DNA from: a virus
Taxonomy: Duplodnaviria; Heunggongvirae; Uroviricota; Caudoviricetes
Strand: one strand, 5' to 3'
IMG/VR virus record: IMGVR_UViG_3300020045_008999
Location: 192,001-256,000 of that record
DNA: 64,000 nt
The notes beneath the pieces were generated by a model. The model had not been told where the DNA came from and did not search any database. It saw nothing but the letters and a program-made list of their open reading frames with translations. Shown piece by piece: positions 1 through 55,759 of the stretch. Within the stretch, counting starts at the first letter, position 1; every line of letters starts with the position of its first letter. Both the position numbers and the translations under genes were made by a program.

Positions 1-236
1 ATGTCTTAGGGGTTGATTCGCGTTCATGGGACTGGTTTCCTAACCAGGTGGGTGGTTGTGTTAGTATTATTTATGATAAAATAAACAATTCTAATTATGA
101 TGTTTCAATTTTCAATACTTTATACCGCTATAACCTCAGACAGGTTCAGATAAACAATGGGATATCATCAGAATACCTTACATATTATCAGAACCGAAAG
201 CGTATTGATACAATTAATAAAATATTAGATGACTAA
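1..236 (+). CDS. LRR-like repeat family protein, 5'-truncated by window edge
   Basis: Frame is open from the left edge (..WFPNQVGGCVSI..), matching the family repeat; ends RIDTINKILDD. Confidence 0.6.
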   Translation, partial: VLGVDSRSWDWFPNQVGGCVSIIYDKINNSNYDVSIFNTLYRYNLRQVQINNGISSEYLTYYQNRKRIDTINKILDD

Positions 237-238
237 CG

Positions 239-628
239 ATGGATAGAGATGACATTATAACGTTCTGTAAAAGACACAGGATAGCAAATTATAGTATTCG
301 ACCGGATGGGGTTATTGATGTAGATGGTGATGTAGTTATGTTTGTCGAAACACTGAACTTAGGTGGTATAAAGTTTGGCAATGTAAGTGGTGATTTTTTC
401 GTTAACTGGTCTAATTTAAGTAGCATGGTTGGGTTTCCGACCTTTGTTGGTAATACGCTTAGTGCGGATTATTGTCACTTAGATAATAGTGATGAAAATT
501 TTTCTATTATATACCAGTGTGATTGTAAAGAAATGAAATTTACCCACGCTTTTATGGAGGGATATCGGCGGTATCAGGTCAAGCGAATGCGTATTGACAA
601 TATTAATGACATATTAAAAAACGAATGA
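239..628 (+). CDS. LRR-like repeat family protein
   Basis: NYSIRPDGVIDVDGDV N-terminal motif, GFPTFVG repeat, ends RIDNINDILKNE. Confidence 0.7.
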   Translation: MDRDDIITFCKRHRIANYSIRPDGVIDVDGDVVMFVETLNLGGIKFGNVSGDFFVNWSNLSSMVGFPTFVGNTLSADYCHLDNSDENFSIIYQCDCKEMKFTHAFMEGYRRYQVKRMRIDNINDILKNE

Positions 629-1088
629 AACAGCATGAAATTGCCACGCTATTTATAAAATTAGGGATTATTAAATATGATATAAGGGATGATGGTTTAA
701 TTGACATCTACCATAGTGTGCCTTTAGACAAAATAATTTATATCCAACGCGAGACACAGCTTCGCATTGGTAGGATCATCGGAGATGTTCATGGAACATG
801 GTCTACTGAAAATTATGTTGAGAAATTACCATACAGTGTTAGTGGTAATATTTATCTTAAATATGCATCATTGCATGCTACCGATGCGAATTTCGAAGTC
901 TTATACAATTGTCAATGTAATCAAGTATTAACCACTGGCCAATTTAAAGTTAGGTATGAGGGATACTGTAGAGTGAGAAAGCGAAGTGAAACTATTAATG
1001 ACATATTAAAAAACGAATGAATCAGCATGAAATTGCCACGCTATTTATAAAATTAAGGATTATTAACTATGATATAAGGGATGATGGT
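601..1088 (+). repeat. 96-bp direct repeat (601-696 and 993-1088) spanning gene junctions
   Basis: tattaatgacatattaaaaaacgaatga...gatataagggatgatggt occurs twice with 3 mismatches. Confidence 0.9.
625..1020 (+). CDS. LRR-like repeat family protein (divergent)
   Basis: KYDIRDDGLIDI, LPYSVSGN; ends RSETINDILKNE. Confidence 0.65.
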   Translation: MKQHEIATLFIKLGIIKYDIRDDGLIDIYHSVPLDKIIYIQRETQLRIGRIIGDVHGTWSTENYVEKLPYSVSGNIYLKYASLHATDANFEVLYNCQCNQVLTTGQFKVRYEGYCRVRKRSETINDILKNE

Positions 1089-1412
1089 GCAATTGAAATA
1101 AGGGGTGGCATAAACTTATCCACATTATTAAAAATATACCACTATTATCCAACGATCACCATTGGTAGTGTTTCGGGAAATATATATGGTTCAGGGTGTA
1201 CAGAAACCAAACTATTGGGATTTCCATCTCATGTAGGTGGTTTAGTACATCTCATGTACAGTTCACTGGAAGCTACTATTGAAAATTTTGAATTATTGTA
1301 CAAGTGTAATTATTTATCGGTAGTACTCCCACGCTATTTCGAATATGGGTATGTTAGATATTGTAAAATGAGAAAACGAAGTGAGTCTATTGTTGAATTG
1401 TTATATGAATAA
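1017..1412 (+). CDS. LRR-like repeat family protein (divergent)
   Basis: N-terminus nearly identical to 625..1020; GFPSHVGG; ends RSESIVELLYE. Confidence 0.65.
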   Translation: MNQHEIATLFIKLRIINYDIRDDGAIEIRGGINLSTLLKIYHYYPTITIGSVSGNIYGSGCTETKLLGFPSHVGGLVHLMYSSLEATIENFELLYKCNYLSVVLPRYFEYGYVRYCKMRKRSESIVELLYE

Positions 1413-1489
1413 TATTCTCCAGACCTGATCCAAATCGATGTTGTGAAAACTTTAGAACATTCGGTATTGCTTTTTAAGTTATAATGTTG

Positions 1490-1497
1490 TATGTTTG
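1490..1497 (+). promoter_or_regulatory. Bacteroidota-type -7 promoter box TAnnTTTG
   Basis: tatgtttg, intergenic, about 25 bp upstream of ORF 1524; the motif recurs before about 20 genes. Confidence 0.65.
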
Positions 1498-1523
1498 TAT
1501 CATAATAAGTAATACACTGAACT

Positions 1524-1967
1524 ATGGAAGCGATCTACTACACGACAACTGCTGCTGGACAATTGCATTTAGCTGAATTACAATCCCGTATTAAAGATGC
1601 CAAATCTGAAAAAATAATCGTAGACTGTCCCCGATGCAATGGTGAGGGTGGTATAGTTGAATTTGCACATGTATCTAATGGAATTTGTTTTTTATGCAAG
1701 GGTAGTAAACAAACCTATTCATATCGCACGCCGAAACAGCAAAACCTCAACCGTCTTATCAAAGAACAGATCCTAGAATTATCAAAACGTTTGGTTGTTC
1801 CACAAGAAATTATAATTGAATTTGGGACTAACCCAAAGCACCACACACCGATGTTTCATTCTTTTGTGCGCAATTTTATGGCAACCAATGGATTTTTGGG
1901 TGATAGTTATGATTTTCATGACATATTATACAGAATCAATTGCTTGGACCACTTTATGTATGAATAA
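1524..1967 (+). CDS. hypothetical protein with DnaJ-like CxxCxGxG zinc finger
   Basis: CPRCNGEGG...CFLCKGS. Confidence 0.6.
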   Translation: MEAIYYTTTAAGQLHLAELQSRIKDAKSEKIIVDCPRCNGEGGIVEFAHVSNGICFLCKGSKQTYSYRTPKQQNLNRLIKEQILELSKRLVVPQEIIIEFGTNPKHHTPMFHSFVRNFMATNGFLGDSYDFHDILYRINCLDHFMYE

Positions 1968-1985
1968 TTATCTAACTCAAAATTA

Positions 1986-2432
1986 ATGGAATTGCCAAAC
2001 CCCGGAAGCGACGACCTAATAAAAGAAAGCAACACCGCTTATCATACTTTTGTACATCTAACACTCACTCAATGGGGTGTAAAAGATTACACCATTAATA
2101 CTGATATGACTGTCGATATAAATACTGATGTGTCCTTATTAGGTATACCTAATTTAGAAGTACCATTCCAAATAGGCATCGTGTGGGGTTATTTTTCTTG
2201 TTTGATCTGTGGGTTTGAATCATTCAAGGGATTTCCACGTAAAGTATATGGTACGTTTCGTTGTATTAGTAATGAAATAATACATTCCCAAGAAAATTTT
2301 GATTACTTATATACATTGGAACCATCTAAGATAGATATTGGGGATCGTGGCGACCCGTTTCACGACGCGTACCAACAGTATGTCAAGGGCCGGATGAGAT
2401 GTGATAACATTAATGAAATATTAAACCCATAA
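1986..2432 (+). CDS. LRR-like repeat family protein
   Basis: DYTINTDMTVDI, GFPRKVYGTFRC; ends RCDNINEILNP. Confidence 0.7.
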   Translation: MELPNPGSDDLIKESNTAYHTFVHLTLTQWGVKDYTINTDMTVDINTDVSLLGIPNLEVPFQIGIVWGYFSCLICGFESFKGFPRKVYGTFRCISNEIIHSQENFDYLYTLEPSKIDIGDRGDPFHDAYQQYVKGRMRCDNINEILNP

Positions 2433-2435
2433 CAG

Positions 2436-2843
2436 ATGCAGAAAAGAACAACACCGGAATATATTAGCAACCTACCAAAGAACCACATTTTTGTATTTGG
2501 ATCAAATTTATCGGGAAGACATGGTAAGGGGGCAGCGAAAACGGCTCTGAGATGGGGTGCGCGCTATGGCCGGGCAAATGGTCCACAAGGAAGAACCTAT
2601 GCATTACCAACCAAAGATGCCCAAATTAAGCACGCTTTGTCCATTGATATAATTAGACCATTTGTAGATGAATTCATAGCATTTGCAAAAGAGAATGTCG
2701 GTCTGGTGTTTTTAGTAACCGAAGTCGGTTGCGGTCTGTCTGGTTTAAAACCTAGTGCTGTTGCACCACTATTCATCGATGCCATTGGTGTGGAAAACAT
2801 TCATTTACCGGAACGATTTTGGAATATTCTTAATAAAATATAA
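2436..2843 (+). CDS. macrodomain-like phage protein (A1S_2505-type)
   Basis: IFVFGSNLSGRHGKGAA...YALPTK...FLVTEVGCGLSG signature. Confidence 0.7.
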   Translation: MQKRTTPEYISNLPKNHIFVFGSNLSGRHGKGAAKTALRWGARYGRANGPQGRTYALPTKDAQIKHALSIDIIRPFVDEFIAFAKENVGLVFLVTEVGCGLSGLKPSAVAPLFIDAIGVENIHLPERFWNILNKI

Positions 2844-2848
2844 AACAT

Positions 2849-3328
2849 ATGGATTTAACTACATTAATTCCGGAAATTGATTACCAACAAACCTACACAT
2901 ATGAGCAAAGGGTCGATATTTTTAATAAGTATCTGATTTCACCGGCCACTAAAATGATGTGTCCGATTTGGCAATTATCACAATTTATAATTAGTAATAC
3001 CATGCCCAATAAAAATACTTACGTATATAGATTTGGACATGGTCAGAACTTATTAAACAACTCAAGAGATATAGCGATACAAAACCGCAAAGAGATGCAA
3101 GTTTCAATGACTTCTTCTAATAAATCAATCATGATACGTAGTTATGATCCAGATGCGAAAGAAATGCCAAAATATGGGAAGTATCGTAATGCGATTCGAT
3201 TTGATTTAACGATGCGTACGATTTCACTATGTACTAGTTTAACACAATTAGGACCGTATCAGGTTAGTCGTGATTTATATGATCAAATTGACCAGTGGTT
3301 AATAGATTTTGGGTATAGTAAGTGGTAG
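2849..3328 (+). CDS. hypothetical protein
   Basis: 159-aa ORF tightly packed in operon. Confidence 0.6.
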   Translation: MDLTTLIPEIDYQQTYTYEQRVDIFNKYLISPATKMMCPIWQLSQFIISNTMPNKNTYVYRFGHGQNLLNNSRDIAIQNRKEMQVSMTSSNKSIMIRSYDPDAKEMPKYGKYRNAIRFDLTMRTISLCTSLTQLGPYQVSRDLYDQIDQWLIDFGYSKW

Positions 3329-3334
3329 ATTACA

Positions 3335-3392
3335 TTAAATTTAATACAACGAATAGTGCATTAAATTACACTATTCGTTGTATTAAATTTAA
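3335..3392. repeat. perfect 24-bp inverted repeat with 10-nt loop
   Basis: ttaaatttaatacaacgaatagtg / cactattcgttgtattaaatttaa. Confidence 0.9.
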
Positions 3393-3421
3393 AAATCATA
3401 CGTAAGTATGGAAATAGTGCA

Positions 3422-3637
3422 ATGAATGGCACTTTTAAAAATAAAAAAGAACATAGCATGTCAGAAAATTTAAACGAAGCACCCAAAGACTCACAAGTAA
3501 CCGGGGTATTTATTCAATTTCAGGATCGAGGAATGGTGAATATCGCTGATTTATCCAGAGTAGAATATGAAGAATTTTTGGATATGATGCATATGGTCCG
3601 AACATCTTATTTAGTAGCGATAAATCGAACCGAATAA
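3422..3637 (+). CDS. hypothetical protein (start may be the internal MSENL)
   Basis: ORF track, co-directional packing. Confidence 0.5.
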   Translation: MNGTFKNKKEHSMSENLNEAPKDSQVTGVFIQFQDRGMVNIADLSRVEYEEFLDMMHMVRTSYLVAINRTE

Positions 3638-3641
3638 TCAT

Positions 3642-4232
3642 ATGGAAATATATGAAAAGATGAAGTCTTTGAAGAATAAAAGAAATAAGGAAAAAGTAGT
3701 TGATAAAGATATCAAAAAAATTAAATCATTTTGTGATCTGGTTGTGATTGGTACTTATGTGATCAATTTGGATAATACCGTATCTGTAACTGGAATGGTA
3801 AATATGGCTGGTCATGGGTTGAAATCTATACCGGTTAAATTTAAAGAGGTAAGTGAAGGGTTTAATTGTTCGGGAAACACACTAACTAATTTAATTGGTG
3901 CCCCGGATTCTATTGGTACATATTTTAATTGTTCTGACAATTTACTAACATCATTGGTTGGATTACCATGTTACATTCATGATTTTCTCATGTGTCATAC
4001 CAACCGCCTTGAAAGTTTCCAAGGATTAGAGAGTAGTACTTATAGCCCAACATGTAGGCTGCATGTCTATAACAATCCAACTATGAAACAAGAAGATAGG
4101 TTGGATAATTTTAAACGATTAGATAATTTTAATTCAAATTGTGTTTATTTGGATTCGGATTTAAACCATAGTTATCAACTATATTTACGTGCTAAAGACC
4201 GTATTAAAAACATTGCCGACATACTTAAATAA
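3642..4232 (+). CDS. LRR-like repeat family protein
   Basis: 22-aa repeats FNCSGNTLTNLIGAP / FNCSDNLLTSLVGLP; ends RIKNIADILK. Confidence 0.8.
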   Translation: MEIYEKMKSLKNKRNKEKVVDKDIKKIKSFCDLVVIGTYVINLDNTVSVTGMVNMAGHGLKSIPVKFKEVSEGFNCSGNTLTNLIGAPDSIGTYFNCSDNLLTSLVGLPCYIHDFLMCHTNRLESFQGLESSTYSPTCRLHVYNNPTMKQEDRLDNFKRLDNFNSNCVYLDSDLNHSYQLYLRAKDRIKNIADILK

Positions 4233-4237
4233 AAAAT

Positions 4238-4438
4238 ATGATGAATAATAAAGAAATTAAACAAGAATGTGACTTAATATACAACGAAATTAAGAGTGCC
4301 GAACAACGACTGCGCAAATTGCGAGACCTTTGTGAGCATGATGATACCGATATTGGAAATTATTCCTATCGAGTTGGGGTTGTTGAGCGCGCAGAAATTT
4401 GTAATTCATGCGGCGAAATCATAAAACGCATGAGTTAA
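4238..4438 (+). CDS. small zinc-ribbon protein
   Basis: CEH...CNSCG. Confidence 0.55.
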   Translation: MMNNKEIKQECDLIYNEIKSAEQRLRKLRDLCEHDDTDIGNYSYRVGVVERAEICNSCGEIIKRMS

Positions 4439-4454
4439 TTAATAATGTATAGAT

Positions 4455-4985
4455 ATGACCCAAGAAGAATTAATTCGCGGAATATGTAGTACGTGTATTA
4501 CCGGAACTTATGATCTGGGCCCAGATTTGTCGGTAAATGTAAATGGTTCGGTAAATTTAGCTCATAGAAATTTATTATGTTTGCCTATTAATTTTAATAC
4601 TGTGAGTGGTAATTTTTACTGCGAAGGTAATAGGTTGACCACACTACATGGTGCTCCACACTACGTTGGTGGCGTATTTGATTGTTCCTTTAATAGATTG
4701 ATCAATTTAAATGGATTGCCTAAAGAGATATCTGGTAATTTAATTTGTAGTAATAATTCCTTTATTACATTTGAGGGTATGGACAAATCGATGATCAGTG
4801 GTGATCTGGCATGTTTTGATAATTTCGCATTAAGAAGCGATAAAAGTTCAGATATGATCAATTTTAAAATATTTGATCAATTTATGCCCGCACAAATCTA
4901 CGTCGATCATTCAATTACTGAACGATATAAACAATATTTACGCATTAAAAACCGTATTGACATCATTAAAAATATTTTAAACTAA
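4455..4985 (+). CDS. LRR-like repeat family protein
   Basis: FYCEGNRLTTLHGAPHYVGGVFDCSFNRLINLNGLP; ends RIDIIKNILN. Confidence 0.8.
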   Translation: MTQEELIRGICSTCITGTYDLGPDLSVNVNGSVNLAHRNLLCLPINFNTVSGNFYCEGNRLTTLHGAPHYVGGVFDCSFNRLINLNGLPKEISGNLICSNNSFITFEGMDKSMISGDLACFDNFALRSDKSSDMINFKIFDQFMPAQIYVDHSITERYKQYLRIKNRIDIIKNILN

Positions 4986-4996
4986 ACAACACGCAT

Positions 4997-5395
4997 ATGG
5001 ACAATATGGACAAAATATTAACAAACGAAGCTTATATATCCTTTTCAAATTGGCTTATTCATTCAGATTGTGCAACGCGTTGCTGGGGTGGGTTAGGTAA
5101 TGGTAATGATAATGGTGGCATTGGTTTTGAATTTTTACCAGAAGAATTCCAAGTTGAAATGCTCATTATGTGGTTTGATGCAATGGAAATATTCATTGGT
5201 AGTGAGATTTGTTTCGATAGTGGATCACAATATGTTCGTGGGTTTGATGCATCCGTTTGGTCGAGTACTATTATTTTGGTCGAGAGTATATCCGGATACA
5301 ATAACCTAGATGTGTATCAAAGTCGTTTGGAATCCAAAAAGGACGCAATTGTATATGCGAATAATTACTACAATACCATTAAGTCTAAGCGATGA
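4997..5395 (+). CDS. hypothetical protein
   Basis: ORF overlaps the start of the next gene. Confidence 0.6.
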   Translation: MDNMDKILTNEAYISFSNWLIHSDCATRCWGGLGNGNDNGGIGFEFLPEEFQVEMLIMWFDAMEIFIGSEICFDSGSQYVRGFDASVWSSTIILVESISGYNNLDVYQSRLESKKDAIVYANNYYNTIKSKR

Positions 5396-5931
5396 AGATC
5401 AATCGAAGTACCATCATACACAAATGTCTTAGATATAACATCAATAATTATTCAATAAATTTAGATGGTTCGATTGATGTGCATGGTGATGTAAATTTAT
5501 TTCAGATTAAATTAGAAAAACTACCATTAAATTTTGGTAAGGTCAGTGGTAATTTTTCATGTGCATTTAATAAATTAACTACACTAGAGGGTTCCCCGGT
5601 TACGGTGGGTGGTTTTTTTGATTGTTCCTATAATACGTTAACATCCTTGGAGGGTGCTCCACATACAGTGGGACGTTTTTTCGATTGTAGTATGAATAGT
5701 TTGACAAATATATTAGGTGGACCCACATTAGTTCGCGATGAATTTAAACTTTCGAAACTATTTGATGGGACACATGTTAGTATTGATGACAATTATGCCT
5801 ATTTATATGATCTCATGTTGCAAAATACTGATATTTTTTTCAGAAGCCAGCCCATGCGTGATTATTTCATAAAATATGTCAAAGCCCGTAAAAGACTAGA
5901 TGTGATAAAATCAATTTTGGATACGGATTGA
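5392..5931 (+). CDS. LRR-like repeat family protein
   Basis: NYSINLDGSIDVHGDVNL; three FxCxxNxLTxLEGxP repeats; ends RLDVIKSILDTD. Confidence 0.8.
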   Translation: MKINRSTIIHKCLRYNINNYSINLDGSIDVHGDVNLFQIKLEKLPLNFGKVSGNFSCAFNKLTTLEGSPVTVGGFFDCSYNTLTSLEGAPHTVGRFFDCSMNSLTNILGGPTLVRDEFKLSKLFDGTHVSIDDNYAYLYDLMLQNTDIFFRSQPMRDYFIKYVKARKRLDVIKSILDTD

Positions 5932-6980: not shown

Positions 6981-7223
6981 ATGGAGTTCAAACCTAAATA
7001 TGGCAACAGTACCAAACCTTTACAATATGACTTGGAATCACTTGTAGAGGATTCATACTATCGCATCAATGACACCAAAAAAATTCTACAATGGAATGGT
7101 GTTGAATTTCTCAAACCTTTGAAAGACCAACAAGGGCGATATGGTAGTTGGTTGGAACGAATAGAATCGCAGCCAAATGTTAAATTCGTACAAGAAGTGG
7201 ATCTATTAGAACTCTACTTATGA
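6981..7223 (+). CDS. hypothetical protein
   Basis: ORF in operon. Confidence 0.55.
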   Translation: MEFKPKYGNSTKPLQYDLESLVEDSYYRINDTKKILQWNGVEFLKPLKDQQGRYGSWLERIESQPNVKFVQEVDLLELYL

Positions 7224-7555
7224 TTTATCTAATTACCGTAGAAGCTAATTACGATCATCTTGAAATTGAATTTCTGGCAAATTTTGAAATCATTGCAGAC
7301 ATTTGTGAAAGTACTAATGCATCAAGGGGTACTATTGAGGCTGAGCTTACTAAATATAATCCGGACATTTATACCGTATTTTCATCGTTTATACATCTAA
7401 AACAACGAGGATATGTAGTGCTTCATACTCGATCAGTTTCGTACTTTAATAATGCGGTGTGGAAACCTGATTTAAGTTACATGCTAATAAATACCGACAA
7501 TTCGGCGATAAAACCGTTATTTCGAAAAAAAATGATTGCGGAAATACTTAAATAA
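7220..7555 (+). CDS. hypothetical protein with C-terminal R-x3-I-x2-IL tag
   Basis: Ends RKKMIAEILK. Confidence 0.6.
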   Translation: MIYLITVEANYDHLEIEFLANFEIIADICESTNASRGTIEAELTKYNPDIYTVFSSFIHLKQRGYVVLHTRSVSYFNNAVWKPDLSYMLINTDNSAIKPLFRKKMIAEILK

Positions 7556-9528: not shown

Positions 9529-9867
9529 ATGATAATAATCGCTATAGTGCGTAATTGTACATTACCACTTACCCAGAATGGACTTGAGATGATTATGTCC
9601 AGCATCAATCTGATAGATATTGATATATTAATGGAAATTGATTCAGCACTAGGAATGACAGATGATAAAGATGTAATTAATTTTTTTAGAAGTCGTGGTA
9701 TTAAACATTTTCGCGATTCATATATCTCATACTTAAATCGGTATGGTGTTGTTCAATTGTATTCCGGAAAATTGGCATTACAACCTATAGTGATTGTCGA
9801 TTGTATGCATTCTAAATTCAGACATATTGAAAGACTTATTTCTATTCGTAAAATTTTAAGTAGCTAA
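9529..9867 (+). CDS. hypothetical protein with C-terminal tag
   Basis: Ends RLISIRKILSS. Confidence 0.6.
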   Translation: MIIIAIVRNCTLPLTQNGLEMIMSSINLIDIDILMEIDSALGMTDDKDVINFFRSRGIKHFRDSYISYLNRYGVVQLYSGKLALQPIVIVDCMHSKFRHIERLISIRKILSS

Positions 9868-24421: not shown

Positions 24422-24428
24422 TATCAAT

Positions 24429-43860: not shown

Positions 43861-43874
43861 TGTTCGGTTTTTTT
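43842..43874. terminator. bidirectional terminator between convergent units
   Basis: aaaaaaaccgagca-attaa-tgttcggttttttt. Confidence 0.8.
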
Positions 43875-44285: not shown

Positions 44286-44295
44286 TTTATATATG

Positions 44296-44709: not shown

Positions 44710-44712
44710 GTA

Positions 44713-45120: not shown

Positions 45121-45135
45121 TAGAATATTTTAGTT

Positions 45136-45546: not shown

Positions 45547-45943
45547 TTATTTCGTTTATAATTTCGTTTATAATCACTGAAGCCTTTTTTACTGAATCGA
45601 ATCCATCACCTATGTCAATTTTATATGAATACTGAACTGCACTTGATGACGTGATTGAGATAACATACATCAGATATGCCCAATAGTCATCATCAACGCA
45701 CAGAAGAAGCATATCATCGGTTTCATTTATAAATGAAGATAATCTACTACCAACCCGCGTACTAGTACCAGACAATCTACATGCACTATATTCCGAGAAC
45801 ACTGCAATTACTTCATCACATAAGCTCTCAGGTATTATCACACCGTTTTGTATAGCATCTGAAAATTCCTGGTTAGTTATTTCAATTACTTCATCATCAC
45901 CTTTAGACTCTAAAAACATTTTAAATTTCTTAATCATTATCAC
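45539..45943 (-). CDS. acidic array paralog 7
   Basis: MIKKFKMFLES...DDDYWAYL...YKIDIG. Confidence 0.8.
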   Translation of the reverse strand: MIMIKKFKMFLESKGDDEVIEITNQEFSDAIQNGVIIPESLCDEVIAVFSEYSACRLSGTSTRVGSRLSSFINETDDMLLLCVDDDYWAYLMYVISITSSSAVQYSYKIDIGDGFDSVKKASVIINEIINEIND

Positions 45944-46361
45944 TTATCAATTTTTTCAGGATATTCCAATATTCACTCATATTGCTATACCCGTCGGAGA
46001 TGTCTATTTTGTGATACCAGGCTCTCACACCCGGTTGTGGAACAAAACGTACATAACCATCAGATGTGGTGATGATTTTATATTCTGGGATAGTATAAGT
46101 AATATACAACCAATAGTCATCATCTATGAATAAGTAAATATTTTCCATCGTTTTAGATTCACCATGTAATTCACAATCACTATTGTCATAGTATAATACA
46201 ATTTTATTCATTTCACTAGTTATATCGACAAACATATCATGTTCAATTTTGACTTGAATATTGCCTCGGGCACGATCCCAATCATCGCGAGTGATTTGTA
46301 CTACATTTTCTTCGGGATTGTTATTTTCTAAAAATAGTTTAAACTTAGTAATCATCATCAA
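45930..46361 (-). CDS. acidic array paralog 6
   Basis: MITKFKLFLEN...DDDYWLYI...HKIDIS. Confidence 0.8.
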   Translation of the reverse strand: MMMITKFKLFLENNNPEENVVQITRDDWDRARGNIQVKIEHDMFVDITSEMNKIVLYYDNSDCELHGESKTMENIYLFIDDDYWLYITYTIPEYKIITTSDGYVRFVPQPGVRAWYHKIDISDGYSNMSEYWNILKKLISDND

Positions 46362-46782
46362 TATTTAATTTATCTCTAATAGCTTCTATAATATTTAAAT
46401 ATTCCGGAACGTTATCATAACCATTACCAATATCTATTTTGTGATACAATTCGGTTGGTTCGATAATCTCATCTAATCGGAATCCTGGTTTATACGACAT
46501 TGAATAATTTACATATAACCAGTAATCATTATCCATAAACAAATTCAGCTGGTCATAAAAATTCGATTCAGCGCTAATGCTAAACCTAGTATCATCATAA
46601 TCAAAATAAAATTCTCTTCTTGGATTAAAAACAGCACGAATTCCAATTAGTGAATTTTCTGGGAATACTATGCGATCATTAAGCCATGCATAATTCCAAT
46701 CACTTAAAGTGATCTCTATTACGACATCATCTGTATTAATATTTTCCAAAAATAATTTGAAATTAGTTATCATTTTGATCAT
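46345..46782 (-). CDS. acidic array paralog 5
   Basis: MITNFKLFLEN...DNDYWLYV...HKIDIG. Confidence 0.8.
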   Translation of the reverse strand: MIKMITNFKLFLENINTDDVVIEITLSDWNYAWLNDRIVFPENSLIGIRAVFNPRREFYFDYDDTRFSISAESNFYDQLNLFMDNDYWLYVNYSMSYKPGFRLDEIIEPTELYHKIDIGNGYDNVPEYLNIIEAIRDKLNIDDDY

Positions 46783-46792
46783 TTTATAAAAT

Positions 46793-47170
46793 TTAGTTCT
46801 CGGCTGTTATGTTAATAATCTCACAGTATTTCTCAGTATACTCATATCCATTAGCAATATCTATTTTGTGATATTGGTAATTCGGGGACTCTTGACAATA
46901 TTTTACCCACATATAATAGTCTGTATCAATAAATATATACAGATTAATGTTACGATACTCGAATGACATTGAATTCGTTGCATCGCTTTCACATGGTGTG
47001 TATTTTATATCAATATACGGCCTGAATGCGTCGATTATTACATCAACATCAGATTGACCAAATGAAACACTTGATTCTTCAAAAGTTTCATAATATTCAT
47101 ACTCACTAACTTCTTCGACATACTCGTTTGCGTTATTATTTTCCAGAAATAATTTAAAATTAGTTATCAT
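46793..47170 (-). CDS. acidic array paralog 4
   Basis: MITNFKLFLEN...DTDYYMWV...HKIDIA. Confidence 0.8.
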   Translation of the reverse strand: MITNFKLFLENNNANEYVEEVSEYEYYETFEESSVSFGQSDVDVIIDAFRPYIDIKYTPCESDATNSMSFEYRNINLYIFIDTDYYMWVKYCQESPNYQYHKIDIANGYEYTEKYCEIINITAEN

Positions 47171-47594
47171 CCTCTCCCATTAATTTATATTCTTCCTCTA
47201 ACATCACTTTGGTTTTATCTAACAGCTGCATGTAATCCGAAATATAATTATACCCATCAGAAATATCAATTTTATGATAAAGCTCACATGGTTCATAATA
47301 AAAATCAAACTCATATCTTACCCACAAATAATAATCTGAATCAAAAAACATTTCATACCTACCCGGGTCATTTCCTATATCGAAGTTCAACATATGGACA
47401 ATATCCCCACCATCGTCATCATCGCGATTAAGTATGTGATATTTACTAAAACCGGATATGATTTTATCACAATCATCATCATTAATATGGATACTATTAG
47501 TTTTAAACTCATCCCAAAATTCTGCGATATTCACTTCAACAACATTATCTGAATCTGCGATACTTTCTAAAAATAATTTATATTTTTTTATCAT
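47160..47594 (-). CDS. acidic array paralog 3
   Basis: MIKKYKLFLES...DSDYYLWV...HKIDIS. Confidence 0.8.
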   Translation of the reverse strand: MIKKYKLFLESIADSDNVVEVNIAEFWDEFKTNSIHINDDDCDKIISGFSKYHILNRDDDDGGDIVHMLNFDIGNDPGRYEMFFDSDYYLWVRYEFDFYYEPCELYHKIDISDGYNYISDYMQLLDKTKVMLEEEYKLMGEDDN

Positions 47595-48091
47595 TATTCT
47601 CTATTTCTTTTTTGATCCACTATTTCTAAATATTCTGCAATATGGATAAACCCTTCACTAATATCGATTTTGTGGTAAATTGATAAGTAATTATCAGAAT
47701 CTTCATAATCCTCGTCGTCATATATTTGATCGTCATCCCAATAATCACCATCACCATCACCATCACCATCACCATCACCATCAATTTGATCGACATCCCA
47801 GTACTCGCGATCTACCATTCTAATATCATAATTTATATATAACCAATAATCACTATCCAAGAATAAATAAACACTGTCGTCTGGTCCGTTCATGGATGCC
47901 TCTTTACCACTACGCGCCCTAGAAAAGATTAAATCTGATTCAACAAGTGTATTGTTTATATCATCAACAAATGATTGATCTATGTGAATAGCATACAGAT
48001 TATATTGATCATTATACTCATCTGCACTAATTTCAACAATATTATCCTCGGTGTCTATACTTTCTAAAAATAGTTTATATTTTGTTATCAT
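47594..48091 (-). CDS. acidic array paralog 2 (with DG-repeat insertion)
   Basis: MITKYKLFLES...DSDYWLYI...DGDGDGDGDGDGD...HKIDIS. Confidence 0.8.
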   Translation of the reverse strand: MITKYKLFLESIDTEDNIVEISADEYNDQYNLYAIHIDQSFVDDINNTLVESDLIFSRARSGKEASMNGPDDSVYLFLDSDYWLYINYDIRMVDREYWDVDQIDGDGDGDGDGDGDYWDDDQIYDDEDYEDSDNYLSIYHKIDISEGFIHIAEYLEIVDQKRNRE

Positions 48092-48095
48092 TACT

Positions 48096-48506
48096 CTACT
48101 CTATGTTTCTTTTTTGATCCACTATTTTCAAATATTTTTCAATGTGAATGAGACCTTCACTGATGTCTATTTTGTGATATAATGAACTGTAATTTTCGTT
48201 GGGAGCACCACTAGCGGATACCGGCATAATATCGTAATTTACATATAACCAATAATCATTATCAATAAAAACGCTCATCAGCTCATCATTATGTGAATAA
48301 TTAAATGCGCTTATTTCACTGCTAGATATTTTCAAAATTGAATCAGATGAAGTTCTACCCAATGCAATATTCAATTCATGTAAAAAACCCGGATCCATAC
48401 AAATACTATCTAACTCAAACTGTGCATCGTATTCATCTACACTAATTTCAATGATATTATCTTCGGTGTCTATACTTTCCAAAAATAATTTAAATTTTTT
48501 TATCAT
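48096..48506 (-). CDS. acidic array paralog 1
   Basis: MIKKFKLFLES...DNDYWLYV...HKIDIS. Confidence 0.8.
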   Translation of the reverse strand: MIKKFKLFLESIDTEDNIIEISVDEYDAQFELDSICMDPGFLHELNIALGRTSSDSILKISSSEISAFNYSHNDELMSVFIDNDYWLYVNYDIMPVSASGAPNENYSSLYHKIDISEGLIHIEKYLKIVDQKRNIE

Positions 48507-48536: not shown

Positions 48537-48875
48537 ATGAAAATAGTTAGATCTAAAGAACATCGTATATACCAAAAACATTTTTGGATAAAAAAACGGT
48601 TAGTTAGATTTCACCAAACATCACTAAGCAAATACCCCTCAAAAGATGCCTCTTCTATTTTACGAGATATGCATTGTTGGTATTTTCGAATAGGCACTAT
48701 ACCATATTTTATATTCAAATCTAATAAATGGGATAGTAAATTTGAAGATAAACCTAGATACGGTAAGAAGAAACGATCACACTATGTCGATAACCGGGAT
48801 TATGGTAAAACTTCGTCAAGAATATTAGATAAAAAAGAATTTAATCAGTTATTGAAATACTATGGACTTATGTAA
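48537..48875 (+). CDS. basic hypothetical protein
   Basis: K/R-rich ORF. Confidence 0.55.
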   Translation: MKIVRSKEHRIYQKHFWIKKRLVRFHQTSLSKYPSKDASSILRDMHCWYFRIGTIPYFIFKSNKWDSKFEDKPRYGKKKRSHYVDNRDYGKTSSRILDKKEFNQLLKYYGLM

Positions 48876-49407
48876 TATAATAAAAAATCTAGACGGTATG
48901 CTAGTCCTAAATAACCAAGTATTTGCATATACTCATTTCTCAAATATTAGAATATGCCATGTACATGATGATAATATATGGGTCACTCTTAATTTTAGCG
49001 TTATAAATGACATAAAGCGATTGGTGCGAATGTTGGACCGATTAAAAATAGAATATTATTACACATCTGTTGGTATTGATTTTAATGATGATCCACTGAG
49101 CAAAAAATCAATTGTGTTGCTAACCGAAAATGTAATAAATATTTTATGTATTGAAAAAAAGTTCAACAACATTCGATTTGGTGACATATCAAATGATCTT
49201 AGCATATATAAAAAATTCTTGGAAGTGTGTGTTAAATTTGACAAAGTACGATATGCAATCGAGACTATTGATGCAATGTTATATATTGACATAAAAAATA
49301 AGTCATCATCGGTAAGAAGGCGAATTCATCCTGTTTTAACATTAGAAAATATCAATGATTTAAAGGCAATTAGACGGCCGCTTGTTATACAAAGTTTATT
49401 AATATAA
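48862..49407 (+). CDS. hypothetical protein with C-terminal tag
   Basis: Ends RPLVIQSLLI. Confidence 0.55.
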   Translation: MDLCNIIKNLDGMLVLNNQVFAYTHFSNIRICHVHDDNIWVTLNFSVINDIKRLVRMLDRLKIEYYYTSVGIDFNDDPLSKKSIVLLTENVINILCIEKKFNNIRFGDISNDLSIYKKFLEVCVKFDKVRYAIETIDAMLYIDIKNKSSSVRRRIHPVLTLENINDLKAIRRPLVIQSLLI

Positions 49408-49449: not shown

Positions 49450-50433
49450 ATGAAAACAGTACTTATTGTCGATGGCAATTATATTTTAACTAAAAATGTA
49501 TTTAGTCTCGCTAAAAATAATGCATTATATCCATACTTAGAAATGACTTTGGATCAGGCCATTAAAAATTACCAAAGTTGGTATCATTTTGATAAAATTT
49601 TCGTAGTTTCGGATTCTAGAGAAAAGTCTTGGCGAAAAAGAATTGATGATTCCTATAAGGGAACTCGTAAAAAAGATACCACAATAGACTGGGATTTTGT
49701 ATATCAAACATATGCGACGTTCAAAGATAATGTTTCCAATGTAAGGAACGTTACTGTTCTTGAGGCACCTACGGTTGAGGGCGATGACTGGATTTCGTAT
49801 TTAGTACATGAGAATAATGCTAAAGGAATTTCCACCGTTACTATTACCAATGATTATGACATCAAGCAGTTGGTAAAATTCCAAATGAATCCTCGCTACA
49901 TTAATGTAATAACAAATGAAATGATGTCAAGACAACTTATTTTTCTACCTAAGAATTATGAAATATTCTTAGATAAAATAAGAAATGACTTCGATCCATA
50001 TGATATTTTCAATCAAAACACTGATATGAATTTTGTGAAAATGATCGACGGTTTGCTCCAAAAATGTAACTTAGTTGAAATAAACCCAATAGAATGTTTG
50101 TTGCTTAAAGTTATATCTGGTGATAAAAGTGATAATATATCATCTGTGCACGAAACATATAACAATGGAAAGAAACGCGGAATTGGTGATGCAGGGGCTA
50201 AAACAATTTTAGGATTATATATTGATGAATTTGGTGAACCAGATGGTTTGTCTGACGATTTAATTGATAATTTATCCGACGTTATTCTGGAAAAGAAAAA
50301 GTTAAATCGCCATGAATTCGGTGACATTGTGAAAAATATTAAAAAAAATATATCAATGGTCGATTTAAGTATGGAATCCATTCCAACCGATATAATCAAT
50401 ATAATGAAAGACGTCTATGATCAAAATAAATAA
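49450..50433 (+). CDS. 5'-3' exonuclease / T4 RNase H-like flap nuclease
   Basis: IVDGN, SWRK...YKGTRK, EGDD, DYDIKQL, GDKSDNI, RGIG. Confidence 0.88.
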   Translation: MKTVLIVDGNYILTKNVFSLAKNNALYPYLEMTLDQAIKNYQSWYHFDKIFVVSDSREKSWRKRIDDSYKGTRKKDTTIDWDFVYQTYATFKDNVSNVRNVTVLEAPTVEGDDWISYLVHENNAKGISTVTITNDYDIKQLVKFQMNPRYINVITNEMMSRQLIFLPKNYEIFLDKIRNDFDPYDIFNQNTDMNFVKMIDGLLQKCNLVEINPIECLLLKVISGDKSDNISSVHETYNNGKKRGIGDAGAKTILGLYIDEFGEPDGLSDDLIDNLSDVILEKKKLNRHEFGDIVKNIKKNISMVDLSMESIPTDIINIMKDVYDQNK

Positions 50434-50872
50434 AGAGCATGCCAAATTCATGGAATTACATGGTGGGGAAATAATAAAAAAAAACATGCCAATCCAAGAT
50501 CCATTGAAAATAGCGAATCGTTTTTCAAATTATGAAATAGTTAGTTGGTTTTATGAAATATTAATGCTATATTTGAATCATAATTTAAATTCACATCGAA
50601 ATCAAGATCCTAGTTATCATCATAACGTTATGATTGACCTAAATAAGGCTATTCAAATACAACAACCAACAAGATCAAAAGTAATTGGTAAACATTTTAA
50701 TTATGATTTAAATGTATATGAATATGAACTGGAAAATGGCGATTTCATTCCAGTAGTACCTCAGAAAACATATAAATCAATTATTGATATTCGTATTTTT
50801 CCACTAGAGTTCATTAAACTTATAGATGTGGCAACCTATCGATCATTATCAATCGAACAAATAATTATATAA
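50417..50872 (+). CDS. hypothetical protein with C-terminal tag
   Basis: Ends RSLSIEQIII. Confidence 0.55.
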   Translation: MIKINKEHAKFMELHGGEIIKKNMPIQDPLKIANRFSNYEIVSWFYEILMLYLNHNLNSHRNQDPSYHHNVMIDLNKAIQIQQPTRSKVIGKHFNYDLNVYEYELENGDFIPVVPQKTYKSIIDIRIFPLEFIKLIDVATYRSLSIEQIII

Positions 50873-51826: not shown

Positions 51827-51831
51827 TATTA

Positions 51832-52056
51832 CTAAGAACGATCCATGTTTAATATATCATGGATCGCTTCTTTTCGATTATATTCTACCATGTAAATTTC
51901 AAAAAGTTTCAGATCCTCGATCTGAAAGCGAGACACTTGATATTCACTGCCGCATATCCATCCACATAATACTACTTCGCCTTCAATACTCAATACTCGC
52001 ATCCTATTACCACCAGTATTTTTAATCACAATATCTTGTATATTAATACTAACCAT
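51832..52056 (-). CDS. YodC/DUF2158-like small protein with C-terminal tag
   Basis: DIVIKNTGGNRMRV...VLCGW...F-x3-DL; then RKEAIHDIL. Confidence 0.55.
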   Translation of the reverse strand: MVSINIQDIVIKNTGGNRMRVLSIEGEVVLCGWICGSEYQVSRFQIEDLKLFEIYMVEYNRKEAIHDILNMDRS

Positions 52057-53299: not shown

Positions 53300-53301
53300 T
53301 T

Positions 53302-53565
53302 ATGTTAAATGTTAAAAATATAATAGAAACACACTCACTAGACTTAACCAAACTTTTTTTGGATATTAAGAATGGTATTATACTTGAATATCAGTTTACA
53401 ACAATTATTAATTTTTATGAACTAATGTTAAATAATAATACAAACTGTGTTCCTAGCGCAACCAAATCATATATGAATTCGTTATTAGCATCTGGATATT
53501 ACATCGATTATGCATCAATACACCGATCCAATGCGATAACTAAAATTTTGAAAGATGAGATTTAG
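53302..53565 (+). CDS. hypothetical protein with C-terminal tag
   Basis: Ends RSNAITKILKDEI. Confidence 0.6.
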   Translation: MLNVKNIIETHSLDLTKLFLDIKNGIILEYQFTTIINFYELMLNNNTNCVPSATKSYMNSLLASGYYIDYASIHRSNAITKILKDEI

Positions 53566-53845
53566 TGTAAGTATTCTTGACTATTTGGGGAAATACCAAG
53601 ATGGGGTTTTAGTTCTGTTGACAATTAAGTATAATGATGTATATTATGATGCAACTTATTATTATAATAAAGAACACTTGTTATTGACTATCAATGAGAA
53701 TTTCGAAATCGAGCTGGGACATTTAATCACCGATGATTCAGATTATGTAGAACTTATCAGATACATTATCACAAAGGTAGTACCATACGATGAAATTTTC
53801 AACAGATTAGATGAATATGTGCCAAAAGAAAATCCACTTGATTAA
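53555..53845 (+). CDS. hypothetical protein
   Basis: ORF in operon. Confidence 0.6.
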   Translation: MRFSVSILDYLGKYQDGVLVLLTIKYNDVYYDATYYYNKEHLLLTINENFEIELGHLITDDSDYVELIRYIITKVVPYDEIFNRLDEYVPKENPLD

Positions 53846-53868
53846 TATAATTTAATCAAGTGGATTTT
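53829..53868. terminator. 17-bp inverted repeat between convergent genes
   Basis: aaaatccacttgattaa-tataat-ttaatcaagtggatttt. Confidence 0.8.
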
Positions 53869-54074
53869 TATAATCCGCTTTCTACAACCCAACCGTCATT
53901 TAGATAAGACTCTACCCAATCCATATATCTACCCTGTGTTACTAAACTAGTTCTTGTAACTTTTCCATTTTTCATAACATGGTTAATATTGATAAACCAA
54001 TCATCGGTTTGATCAGTTTCAAAATAAATTTTAGTACGGGCTTTAGGTTTGGTTAATATTATTTCTATTTTCAT
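53868..54074 (-). CDS. hypothetical protein
   Basis: ORF track. Confidence 0.55.
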   Translation of the reverse strand: MKIEIILTKPKARTKIYFETDQTDDWFININHVMKNGKVTRTSLVTQGRYMDWVESYLNDGWVVESGL

Positions 54075-54092
54075 AGAATATATATTGAGTTT

Positions 54093-55229
54093 CTAAATCA
54101 CGATTTCATTAAGAAATTTACGAGCATTCTCTAAACGGATTGTTTCCGATAGTATTCGTTCTTCGATTTTTATATTAATATCAAACCCATTAATTACCGA
54201 CATGACATAATTAAAAGATACGTCTTTGTTATTTGCTCTGGCAAAGGCACCAATATCATATCCAGTTGCAACATATTTTTCATACAATATATTGATAGAT
54301 TTAAGACAGTTGGATTTGTATGTATTTATTTTATCAACAATTAAATCAACTTCTTTATTTTTCATTGGATCATTTAACACAGACAATATATCGTCAATCT
54401 CACCGGATAATATCAATCGGATTAAATCATTTTCACGATACAATGAATCAGTATATAAACCATGTCTATCAAAATACCATTGTGTCTTTTGCTTAACCAT
54501 TAATCCATTTGTGAATATTACCACAAATCCTTCAGAATCTACTTCGGTTTTAGCTAATTGTATAATCTCGTCTAATGTATAATCAAATGAAAGTCTGGTT
54601 TTTATAAAGGACGGGACCGAATCGAGTGACATATATTCACCACTTATATTATTACGAAGTTGTAGTAAAATAAGACTTCTACCTTTGTATTGTAGTACAA
54701 TTCTATTATCAATTGAAACATATTCAAATATTGGTATAATATTGTTGTCAATTGAGTTCTTAACAAATTCATATAAGTGGGCATCCGAATTGATTATATC
54801 ATTTGCGGCCACTGCTGGATCGGATATAAATGATCCCTTAGACTTAGCTACTATATTTCCATTTGGTAATTTTATGAACGAGGCTAATGAACCATCTTCT
54901 TTATAACTAACCGTATCAATTGTGAGATTTTTTATAATATCATACTGGGTTAATTCACTTTGATTAATATTAAAAAATTTTTTCAAAAGTAAATAACGAT
55001 TGTATAAAGTCCCGTCAGAATTCCACACAAAAGTAAGACCACGAAGTTCATGTGCTTTATAAGATTTACCAGGCACCGGCTCTTCAAAAGTATTTGGTGA
55101 TGCTAATTTATAATCAAAAATGGACACGTTAAACCCCTGTACTACATATTTCATTTCATAGAATAAAAACCCGTCAGTAACGGCACATATTTCTAAACAT
55201 TCTTCATAAGTTGGTAAAAACTGCACCAT
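54093..55229 (-). CDS. RNA ligase 1 (T4 RnlA family)
   Basis: ELRGLTF, KFFNINQ, KEDGSL (motif I), FEYVS..NRIVL, EGFVV, VKQK. Confidence 0.9.
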   Translation of the reverse strand: MVQFLPTYEECLEICAVTDGFLFYEMKYVVQGFNVSIFDYKLASPNTFEEPVPGKSYKAHELRGLTFVWNSDGTLYNRYLLLKKFFNINQSELTQYDIIKNLTIDTVSYKEDGSLASFIKLPNGNIVAKSKGSFISDPAVAANDIINSDAHLYEFVKNSIDNNIIPIFEYVSIDNRIVLQYKGRSLILLQLRNNISGEYMSLDSVPSFIKTRLSFDYTLDEIIQLAKTEVDSEGFVVIFTNGLMVKQKTQWYFDRHGLYTDSLYRENDLIRLILSGEIDDILSVLNDPMKNKEVDLIVDKINTYKSNCLKSINILYEKYVATGYDIGAFARANNKDVSFNYVMSVINGFDINIKIEERILSETIRLENARKFLNEIVI

Positions 55230-55759
55230 TATTCTTTTAAAATATTTCTTAAATTAGACATTCTCATTATGTATTTATCATCTAAGCCAAGTCGGGCTCC
55301 TTCGTATGTAGTTGCAAACGTCGTCCCATCCTTATTGCGAATGAGTATCGGAAATGCTTTATTGGTTAAAACAACATCAATTATGTGACAACTCTCACCC
55401 ATGCAGTCAAAATCCAATCCCACTACATTATCCGGAAATCCTAACCGCATCGAATCACGCGTATGCATTTCATAGTTTTTATCAGCAAGTGATTGTGATA
55501 TTAGGGTAATCACAATGTGCCCACTATACATAACCCTAAAATCATTTACATCAGCTTTAATCTTTTCTTCAATTTCTAAGATCCGAAAAAAATCTCGTAT
55601 CTCAGATAATAGATCTGGTTTAAATTTTTTTGGCAAAGTCAAATACACAGTTAAACATCCGGATTGTGTTCTAATTTTCAAAGATATATCGGTTTGCTCA
55701 AGTTTTGATAAGTCCTCAATATATTTAAATATTTTATCGTTTACTTTCTTCCGATTCAT
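55229..55759 (-). CDS. hypothetical protein with C-terminal tag
   Basis: Ends RMSNLRNILKE. Confidence 0.6.
   Translation of the reverse strand: MNRKKVNDKIFKYIEDLSKLEQTDISLKIRTQSGCLTVYLTLPKKFKPDLLSEIRDFFRILEIEEKIKADVNDFRVMYSGHIVITLISQSLADKNYEMHTRDSMRLGFPDNVVGLDFDCMGESCHIIDVVLTNKAFPILIRNKDGTTFATTYEGARLGLDDKYIMRMSNLRNILKE

Follow-up and report, generated by a model that had tools for sequence, protein, structure and literature searches.

The stretch of DNA analysed here, referred to as the window, raises the question of why many proteins with nothing else in common should end in the same few residues. It is 64,000 nucleotides long (bases 192,001-256,000 of the IMG/VR virus record IMGVR_UViG_3300020045_008999) and belongs to a genome of 596,785 bp with 31.9% G+C, standard stop-codon usage, 18 tRNAs, a transfer-messenger RNA (tmRNA) and a major capsid protein of the T4-type Gp23. 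An earlier note, made from the letters without database searches, had described a C-terminal pattern, R-x3-[IL]-x2-[ILM]-[LI], on about 20 window proteins of several unrelated types, and had read it as an address label recognized by one phage hub. We found that the proteins ending in this pattern, called the tag below, form a sharp class with ~80 members in the genome, and we suggest, with about as much belief as doubt, that the tag is a helical docking motif which can be carried from protein to protein and is recognized by a single partner evolving along with it; this partner may be an AAA+ unfoldase or protease.

The tag, its position and its codons

Genes were taken as greedy non-overlapping open reading frames (ORFs; n=899, 92.7% of the genome covered), for which the position of the C-terminus is unaffected by start-codon choice, and the motif was searched for within 6 residues of the stop. 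Across the whole genome 75 of the 899 ORFs ended in the motif, compared with 1.7 +/- 1.4 (maximum 8) in shuffles. Internal matches numbered 46 in 170,639 positions, giving a 44-fold enrichment per position at the C-terminus. Within the window, 19 of 132 non-overlapping ORFs matched, against a mean of 0.27 and a maximum of 3 in 1000 residue shuffles. One residue lay between the end of the motif and the stop in 36 cases, two residues in 21 and three in 8. Control patterns remained near background in the genome, with 3 matches for the reversed motif, 6 for the motif placed at the N-terminus and 6 when Lys was put in place of Arg; since so few endings carry the Lys, the Arg is specific. A position-weight scan added approximately five near misses, and a few more were found in ORFs rejected by the gene caller. 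All 20 tails quoted in the earlier note were recovered at their positions, 19 on complete ORFs and one on a partial ORF, although its figure of about 20 tagged proteins must be raised to 75-80 for this genome, with hundreds more in the relatives; the comparison with internal sites and with composition-keeping shuffles also settled its concern that an I/K/N-rich proteome could yield such endings by chance.

In this genome the endings follow the logo R-x-x-x-I(97%)-N(37%)-[DE](45%)-[IL]-[LI]-K(31%)-stop, with weaker preferences for K/R at -4 and A at -3 relative to the Arg. Position +9 is K in 31% and N in 17%, after which the stop follows at varying distance.

It is extremely improbable that the pattern stems from a signal in the DNA or RNA at the ends of genes (a promoter, a translation-initiation signal or a terminator) or the I/K/N-rich composition. 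The tag codons are AT-rich and 39% of the tagged genes overlap the next gene at its start codon, compared with 17% of untagged genes overlapping theirs, as might be expected of such a signal. The invariant Arg, however, is encoded by five codons drawn from both the AGR and CGN boxes (AGA 31, CGA 20, CGT 15, CGC 5 and CGG 4), the Ile and Leu codons match genome usage, and third positions are free and carry little information. Because the synonymous codons of the conserved residues match those of the genome, selection acts on the peptide, which bears out the protein-level conservation claimed in the earlier note. Furthermore, 19 of the 75 tagged genes are not followed by any gene on their strand, and the stop-codon usage of tagged genes is ordinary, so that, together with the diverse codons, a promoter, ribosome-loading or terminator signal is no explanation; composition is contradicted by the shuffles already given. 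AGG was used for the invariant Arg in none of the 75 tags, though it makes up 10% of the Arg codons of the genome, while the other Arg codons were found in normal proportions.

Relatives and genome-specific dialects

The capsid protein of this phage is 67% identical to that of LR745206 (635 kb), 66% to that of LR756502 (642 kb), 53% to that of LR756504 (636 kb) and 51% to that of LR756501 (735 kb); identity falls to 35% for LR756500, ~30% for the Lak phages and 27% for Tenacibaculum phage PTm1. Bacteroidetes are the predicted hosts of the largest 'Mahaphage' genomes (Al-Shayeb et al. 2020, PMC7162821). For genome comparison, five tag-bearing genomes of Mahaphage type were set against three tagless outgroups (LR756500, Lak-C1 and PTm1). 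The tag was found on 96 of 962 ORFs in the whole of LR745206 (45-fold over the internal rate) and, in the first 400 kb of each of the following, on 45 of 606 ORFs in LR756504 (49-fold), 15 of 421 in IMG/VR 3300023174_000033 (29-fold) and 9 of 561 in LR756501 (16-fold). Around the capsid gene of 80 IMG/VR relatives, in neighbourhoods of 20 kb, 47 of 1631 ORFs were tagged. In contrast, the outgroups were close to chance, with 3 observed and 0.8 expected in LR756500 (whole, 696 ORFs), 0 and 0.55 in Lak-C1 (400 kb with TAG read as sense, 456 ORFs), and 1 and 0.7 in PTm1 (whole, 319 ORFs). A gapped-triplet scan of the last 16 residues, which makes no use of the motif, returned the tag as the top C-terminal signal in four relatives (the triplet R...I..L was present in 71 of 569 LR756504 proteins, p = 3e-89); in LR756500 and PTm1 it gave no similar signal. 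We conclude that the tag characterizes the subclade with capsid identity of at least 50% to this phage, across which it is kept.

The search fixed only the Arg (R0) and positions +4, +7 and +8, and each genome proved to have its own dialect at the remaining positions: R-[STI]-x-[TINV]-I-N-[DE]-I-L-K in this genome, R-[DEN]-x-K-[IL]-[ND]-x-[IL]-L in LR745206, [EY/H]-R-K-x-I-I-x-[DE]-L-L, mostly ending at the stop, in LR756504, and R-T-[KE]-L-I-D-K-M-L-N in LR756501. With one protein counted per body family, D, E or N stood at +1 in 84 of 95 families in LR745206, 9 of 49 in this genome and 8 of 36 in LR756504 (p = 3e-19), and K or R stood at +3 in 72 of 95, 6 of 49 and 14 of 36, respectively (p = 1e-12). 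On a helical wheel, positions +1, +3 and +5 flank the face formed by R0, +4, +7 and +8, an arrangement consistent with a core that stays fixed and a rim that varies by lineage. In each genome +1 and +3 shift together on dozens of independent proteins, exactly as they would if a common reader were at work.

The tagged bodies themselves are seldom shared. BLAST connected only 19 of the 75 with any protein of the other genomes, 16 of these 19 belonging to the LR family, and judged by these searches the tagged genes turn over fast. Two best-BLAST homologs in LR745206 end in the dialect of that genome, the paired endings, here and in LR745206, being RSYVISKLL and RNYKLEKLGI for one body and RISKIHDIL and RDAKLRKLGI for the other.

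Bodies that carry the tag

After removal of the last 16 residues, the 75 tagged proteins of this genome fell into 50 BLAST families and the 96 of LR745206 into 95. These numbers, together with the alternative tails of the leucine-rich repeat (LRR) family described below, agree with the modular label on unrelated proteins proposed in the earlier note. Tagged proteins are small: 72 of the 75 are 60-200 aa in length, a size class in which approximately one protein in seven is tagged, and the tag was not found on any protein longer than 350 aa in this genome. Pfam domains were absent from the 73 tagged proteins searched. Pfam, NCBIfam and PHROGs gave nothing usable for ten window proteins or for ten larger tagged proteins from LR745206 and this genome, NCBIfam giving no match at E <= 1 for ten tagged proteins. 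A homolog search with one 69-aa tagged protein returned only itself, and ESM Atlas look-ups gave no named family.

The sole large tagged family is an LRR family of 122 members, 20 short members of which carry the tag. Approximately 100 others share a different, near-invariant tail, ...KYQRHFEIWNDDLTLNEENF..LL.EI.DGLE, so that two alternative C-terminal modules occur on one scaffold. LRR family genes lie at 33-180 kb of the record and at 1-5931, 23999-25945 and 28246-28767 of the window; LR745206 seems to hold one or a few homologs. SH3-like mini-proteins make up 6 of the 75 tagged proteins here and 2 of the 96 in LR745206. A further eight tagged proteins have an N-terminal hydrophobic anchor with basic residues mostly just after it, which probably places the tail in the cytoplasm, and the rest are orphans.

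Timing of expression and the N-terminal label

Two motifs were enriched upstream of genes in this genome, a late-type AATATATA[GAC] and a Bacteroidetes-type TAnnTTTG. The former precedes the capsid, portal and terminase genes as well as most large genes. It was found directly upstream of 3 of 75 tagged genes and 131 of 767 others (odds ratio 0.20, p = 0.0015), and in LR745206 upstream of 1 of 96 tagged genes and 128 of 753 others (odds ratio 0.05, p = 1e-6). Assigning genes to transcription units gave a result in the same direction, which was strong in LR745206 and depended on the motif definition in this genome. The C-terminal tag thus marks a non-late gene class.

These results bear on the possibility that the tag is a head-loading signal which, by binding to the scaffold or to the inside of the capsid, would have its carriers packaged and injected in the manner of encapsulin cargo or of proteins with the T4 capsid-targeting sequence (CTS). 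Encapsulins are HK97-fold shells that load cargo by means of short C-terminal peptides, and some tagged genes adjoin the capsid gene in many relatives. The T4 CTS is, like the tag, a short phage-wide label on unrelated proteins, but it is N-terminal, is cleaved by the prohead protease and belongs to late genes, whereas the tag is C-terminal and non-late. The Glu of a T4-type protease site (I-x-E; (L/I)-x-E in the CTS), which would fall at +6, is present in approximately 21% of tags. The late motif of the head genes is under-represented in front of tagged genes, and eight tagged proteins are membrane-anchored. In addition, an N-terminal peptide resembling the T4 CTS, M-x-x-K-[FY]-x-x-F-x-E, is enriched on late-motif genes and never occurs on the same protein as the tag; the earlier note had likewise stated that no tagged protein carries an N-terminal KxF-x-E tag, and none with both was found in this genome or in LR745206. 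Head loading seems already to be served by this N-terminal label, and as a role for the tag, import into the capsid or scaffold, which was among the outcomes first proposed, is now very unlikely. The CTS-like peptide also starts 11 tandem acidic paralogs at 43857-48506 of the window (minus strand), and approximately ten unrelated proteins in each relative.

The tag as the end of a predicted helix

AlphaFold2 models were built with paralog alignments for two tagged proteins. In the model of a 129-aa LRR paralog (pLDDT 95.8) the tag lies inside a 25-residue terminal helix (residues 103-127), and in that of a 69-aa SH3-like member (pLDDT 94.2) five strands are followed by a tag-bearing terminal helix (residues 56-68). 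The SH3-like barrel matches SH3/KOW domains at Z 6-8, mostly over residues 1-57, so that the terminal helix is an add-on; a Foldseek search of the PDB with the LRR model returned weak short-LRR matches only. As the modelled helix is continuous with the fold in the SH3-like and LRR families, the role of the tag may be partly structural.

In its strong form this becomes an explanation without any common reader, in which the helix packs on its own body or self-associates as a short coiled coil and has been reused to finish small domains. We consider this improbable, though it is the rival with the most in its favour. The predicted helices are long, of high confidence and contiguous with the fold; upstream of the Arg, hydrophobic positions keep up a 3-4 spacing in this genome; and R-h-x-x-h-[D/E/N] resembles R-h-x-x-h-E, a trimerisation motif of short coiled coils reportedly described by Kammerer and colleagues in 2005. 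Intramolecular packing, on the other hand, would not be expected to impose an invariant Arg and fixed spacing on ~50 unrelated bodies, and offers no reason for the joint change to D/E/N at +1 and K at +3 on 95 independent proteins of LR745206. A coiled-coil core would be broken in that genome by D, E or N at +1 (84 of 95 families, 88%) and by the residues at -3, mostly S or Q, and position +5 is mostly N or D, with the Glu of the trimerisation motif in 8%. When a complex between an LRR-tagged and an SH3-like tagged protein was predicted in one job as a case of tag-to-tag association, the score was 0.10 against a mark of 0.32, a value that favours neither outcome.

SH3-like mini-proteins and their arrays

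A profile of 16 SH3-like tagged mini-proteins was compared with 1.84 billion representative proteins and matched 3,643 metagenomic representative clusters at E <= 0.001. Among the best 150 matches, 106 were small (<=130 aa) and 90 of these were tagged, with the consensus ending F-K-x-L-S-E-[IY]-R-N-E-K-I-N-K-L-L. The same ending thus stands on thousands of metagenomic SH3-like mini-proteins, and the phenomenon is therefore not limited to one genome. The profile also matched proteins of 270-1217 aa with 4-10 tandem SH3-like barrels and no tag part, for which the weak Pfam matches were to DUF6501 (YozC-like). A tblastn search of 50,697 phage records with a typical SH3-like member gave no match.

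Tandem arrays of 8-25 SH3-like mini-genes (64-95 aa) were observed on two metagenomic phage contigs, L230 (10001-16574) and L232 (8742-10894), and almost all of their products end in a dialect specific to the contig, R-N-[KN]-R-I-N-E-I-L-E-D-E for the former and R-N-E-K-I-N-K-L-L-E for the latter. In a 20-kb stretch of L230, 27 of 52 genes are tagged, including some for proteins of 55-198 aa with apparently other, non-SH3-like bodies. The L230 array is adjoined by a TnpB/IS605 OrfB gene and a GIY-YIG homing endonuclease.

It could be argued from these arrays that the tag is a hitch-hiker, namely the helix of an ancient, expanded SH3-like family that was spread by array recombination, with gene conversion producing the dialects. 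The very large size of the family, its mostly tagged small members, the density of tagged neighbours in the array and the more frequent overlap of tagged genes with the next gene agree with such a history. We nevertheless regard it as an unlikely account of the tag as a whole. A small beta-barrel of the DUF6501/YozC-like type (five strands and a helix) is not the general carrier, being present in only 6 of the 75 tagged proteins here and 2 of the 96 in LR745206, and the codons at the conserved residues are as diverse as those of the genome, so that recent copying or conversion of DNA did not take place. Retention of the peptide despite synonymous drift requires a selected function, so this account explains an origin and not the maintenance. 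An SH3-like origin followed by spread through arrays is plausible as history and is compatible with the docking motif that we favour.

Tagged proteins in the window

The window begins in a run of tagged short-LRR paralogs on the plus strand. The first is the 3' part of a gene that starts left of the window (3-236; record 191772-192236; tail RIDTINKILDD), and it is followed by the 129-aa paralog at 239-628 (tail RIDNINDILKNE), whose model is described above, and by others at 625-1020 (RSETINDILKNE), 1017-1412 (RSESIVELLYE) and 1986-2432 (RCDNINEILNP). Tagged LRR paralogs, also on the plus strand, are located at 3642-4232 (RIKNIADILK), 4455-4985 (RIDIIKNILN), 5392-5931 (RLDVIKSILDTD), 23999-24421 (RYKSIVSILK), 24979-25488 (RSSTIQQMLNE) and 25481-25945 (RIETINDIISDIIT). 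Between these groups lie two plus-strand orphans, one of 111 aa at 7220-7555 (RKKMIAEILK), which has no Pfam, NCBIfam or PHROG match, and one of 112 aa at 9529-9867 (RLISIRKILSS). An 83-aa protein at 27121-27372 (plus strand) ends in ...IRKNAQIDKSII, which is tag-like with one extra residue; its homolog in LR745206 ends in a regular tag (...LREYKLNKLL), that in LR756504 has none, and the tail seen here may be a decaying tag.

The two tagged proteins first listed as membrane proteins both have an N-terminal hydrophobic segment, as had been claimed. One is a 168-aa protein at 37485-37991 (minus strand; anchor at residues 6-33; tail RLENIGKILK) and the other a 164-aa protein at 42831-43325 (plus strand; anchor at residues 1-28; tail RISKIHDILSNDE), the LR745206 homolog of which ends in RDAKLRKLGIE. 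The remaining tagged proteins are orphans: 181 aa at 48862-49407 (plus; RPLVIQSLLI), just upstream of a 5'-3' exonuclease gene; 151 aa at 50417-50872 (plus; RSLSIEQIII), overlapping the end of the exonuclease gene; 74 aa at 51832-52056 (minus; RKEAIHDILNMDRS); 87 aa at 53302-53565 (plus; RSNAITKILKDEI); and 176 aa at 55229-55759 (minus; RMSNLRNILKE), directly upstream of an RNA ligase gene. The exonuclease gene is one of the right-end window genes, among which a cluster at 54093-63198 is devoted to RNA repair and NAD salvage and encodes a T4-type RNA ligase, a PRPP synthetase, a NAMPT-like protein and a NUDIX protein, along with a treble-clef zinc-finger protein, a 2H phosphoesterase and a CCA-adding enzyme.

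Comparison with known shared tails

No published description of the motif was found in the literature searched. The tag works like known shared tails and has the defining features of none of those compared. The SspB 'XB' tail, which docks on the ClpX N-domain, the ssrA tag and the MuA signals are, like the tag, short C-terminal peptides shared by unrelated proteins, which they bring to one machine; the body can be a binder, that of SspB is a small beta-barrel, and the phage clade encodes its own Clp-type ATPase. These bacterial AAA+ signals are extended and are read at or next to a free carboxylate, whereas the tag is predicted to be helical, is followed by 1-6 variable residues and is unrelated in sequence; it lacks the conserved last 2-3 residues that are recognized along with the free carboxylate in an ssrA/ClpX-type degron. 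A tmRNA gene is located at 411350-411712 of the record, with the predicted tag ALANILPVKEVAFA, and among the relatives examined LR756500 alone has one (tag GNNAEMRMAA). The phage tmRNA tag was considered as a related degron and rejected, since tmRNA is confined to these two genomes and neither tag is like the C-terminal motif.

The spacing of the tag, h(+4)-x-x-h(+7)-h(+8), is that of PIP-box or clamp-binding tails such as those of T4 gp43, gp33 and gp55, which also lie at the extreme C-terminus, are often followed by basic residues and bind one hub. The PIP-box is Q-x-x-[ILM]-x-x-[FYW]-[FYW], however, and the tag lacks both the Gln and the aromatics and has its invariant Arg one position earlier. 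A gp55-like late sigma factor (record 387334-387699) ends in ...SNDGQGLHSI rather than in the tag, with the pattern SNDG.G[LIMF][HY][SN][ILF] conserved in all five genomes; this conserved tail may be the clamp-binding tail of the clade, and its difference from the tag (GQGLHSI) argues against a clamp-binding role for the latter. It is not plausible that ~80 orphan early proteins should be clients of a clamp. The sliding clamp was also rejected as a reader because no gp45 family was detected, no gp45-type clamp gene being recognised.

Two further likenesses come from eukaryotic cells and their viruses. The MIM1 helices of ESCRT-III are C-terminal and amphipathic, have a key Arg with Leu/Ile, and are recognized by an AAA+ ATPase, Vps4, through its N-terminal MIT domain. 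Their spacing, (D/E)xxLxxRLxxL(K/R), differs from that of the tag, and MIM1 clients form one homologous family while the tagged bodies are unrelated. The poxvirus PRANC/F-box-like module stands at the C-terminus of ankyrin-repeat paralogs and couples variable binders to a degradative machine. The likeness here is that of large repeat-binder families with one C-terminal dock, LRR and SH3-like scaffolds sharing the tag. PRANC, however, has an F-box fold of 30-40 residues and binds eukaryotic Skp1, and SCF ligases do not occur in bacteria; the tag is 9-14 residues long and is also present on non-repeat and membrane proteins. The Pfam search of 73 tagged proteins, which covered F-box and PRANC, gave no match.

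Finally, the tag does not resemble a membrane-targeting amphipathic helix of the MinD/FtsA type, as D/E is found at +6 (45%) and often at +1, and the invariant Arg cannot be substituted by K. Nor does it resemble LPXTG, PEP-CTERM or T9SS CTD sorting signals, as no hydrophobic segment follows the motif and NCBIfam, whose models include these signals, was silent for ten tagged proteins.

Candidate partners

Roughly 270 proteins of this genome have counterparts in two or more of the relatives examined. The candidates encoded within the clade were DnaK, a ClpC-like double-AAA ATPase, ClpP, and a MoxR-like ATPase adjoining a DUF2201 VWA/metallopeptidase protein. In the record the ClpC-like gene is located at 531557-533656, ClpP at 326015-326686, DnaK at 275818-277677 and the MoxR-like/DUF2201 pair at 267521-270371. 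Each of the five tag-bearing genomes encodes the ClpC-like ATPase, in which two AAA modules are combined with a ClpB_D2-small domain. Four of the five copies lack Clp_N and have instead a short acidic N-terminus (S-[IL]-x-DDDD[DE]); the copy in LR756501, a genome without ClpP, keeps its N-terminal domain. Among the outgroups no match was found in LR756500 or PTm1, and Lak-C1 gave a weak AAA hit. On this distribution the phage ClpC-like ATPase is the leading candidate for the reader.

Other candidates were set aside. ClpP was of no use as a co-marker because LR756501 has the tag without ClpP, and Lak-C1 has ClpP without the tag. The MoxR-like and DUF2201 pair is conserved in the clade, but a DUF2201 homolog is found in tagless LR756500. 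A protein of 364 aa with N-terminal TPR repeats, located in the window at 40081-41175 (minus strand), has no homolog in the four relatives compared and was rejected because the other tag-bearing genomes lack it.

Proposed explanation

We propose that the last 9-14 residues of a tagged protein would form the end of an amphipathic helix on which R0, the I/L at +4, the I/L/M at +7 and the L/I at +8 share one face. Roughly a tenth of the proteins in this clade of huge T4-like phages would carry such a helix fused to the C-terminus, the carriers being small, fast-evolving, non-late accessory proteins that include LRR proteins, SH3-like barrels, N-anchored membrane proteins and orphans. One common partner would dock them all, its hydrophobic groove taking in the three aliphatic side chains while an acidic residue pairs with the invariant Arg. 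Positions +1, +3 and +9 would touch the rim of the groove, and differences in this rim between phage lineages would give rise to the genome-specific dialects. A docking motif is favoured because the position at the C-terminus is strict, the Arg cannot be replaced by Lys, selection acts on the peptide across unrelated bodies and the flanks change from genome to genome.

The likeliest outcome of docking would be hand-over to an AAA+ unfoldase or protease, which is suggested by the non-late accessory nature of the carriers, the cytoplasm-facing tag and the unusual Clp-type ATPase of the clade. Tagged early proteins might in this way be removed on schedule, or might act as adaptors that carry bound host proteins along with them; LRR and SH3-like domains are well-known scaffolds for binding, which makes it possible that the tagged proteins serve as adaptors and are not substrates. 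A more specific version, which we think rather unlikely, is that they are substrate receptors whose variable binder bodies are joined to a constant dock for an AAA+ unfoldase or protease, either the phage ClpC-like ATPase or one of the host, so that host proteins, for example those of defence, are destroyed early. We infer a single reader, its identity and the outcome of docking from the patterns above, and the reader could equally be a host protein.

Several observations weigh against the docking proposal. No reader was found, and the link to the candidate ClpC-like ATPase is limited to co-occurrence across eight genomes. As many as 28 of the 73 core proteins compared had no BLAST hit in the three tagless outgroups, and phyletic subtraction therefore cannot name the reader; nor does ClpP, as described above, follow the tag. 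In the models of both families tested the tag helix is contiguous with the fold and may be packed on the body and not free, and the 1-6 variable residues that follow the motif are unlike classical C-terminal degrons read at the carboxylate. Few tagged proteins have a homolog elsewhere, a tag or tag-like tail stands at both ends of the comparison in three pairs, and the direct evidence for a change of dialect in one protein is two or three pairs.

Significance

A label on ~8-12% of the proteins unites hundreds of small orphan genes of the largest phages into one functional class. The 10-residue peptide, with an R-to-A null mutant, provides an experimental handle for fishing out the partner, and the per-genome dialects are a built-in test of specificity. 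A protease or unfoldase as the partner would make the tag the first virus-encoded, proteome-scale targeting code in bacteria; if the tagged proteins are adaptors, they would reveal how huge phages can act on many host proteins at once. Should they be substrate receptors, the tag would be to bacterial viruses what the ankyrin-PRANC proteins are to poxviruses and F-box proteins are to cells, each phage lineage having a co-evolving dock of its own.

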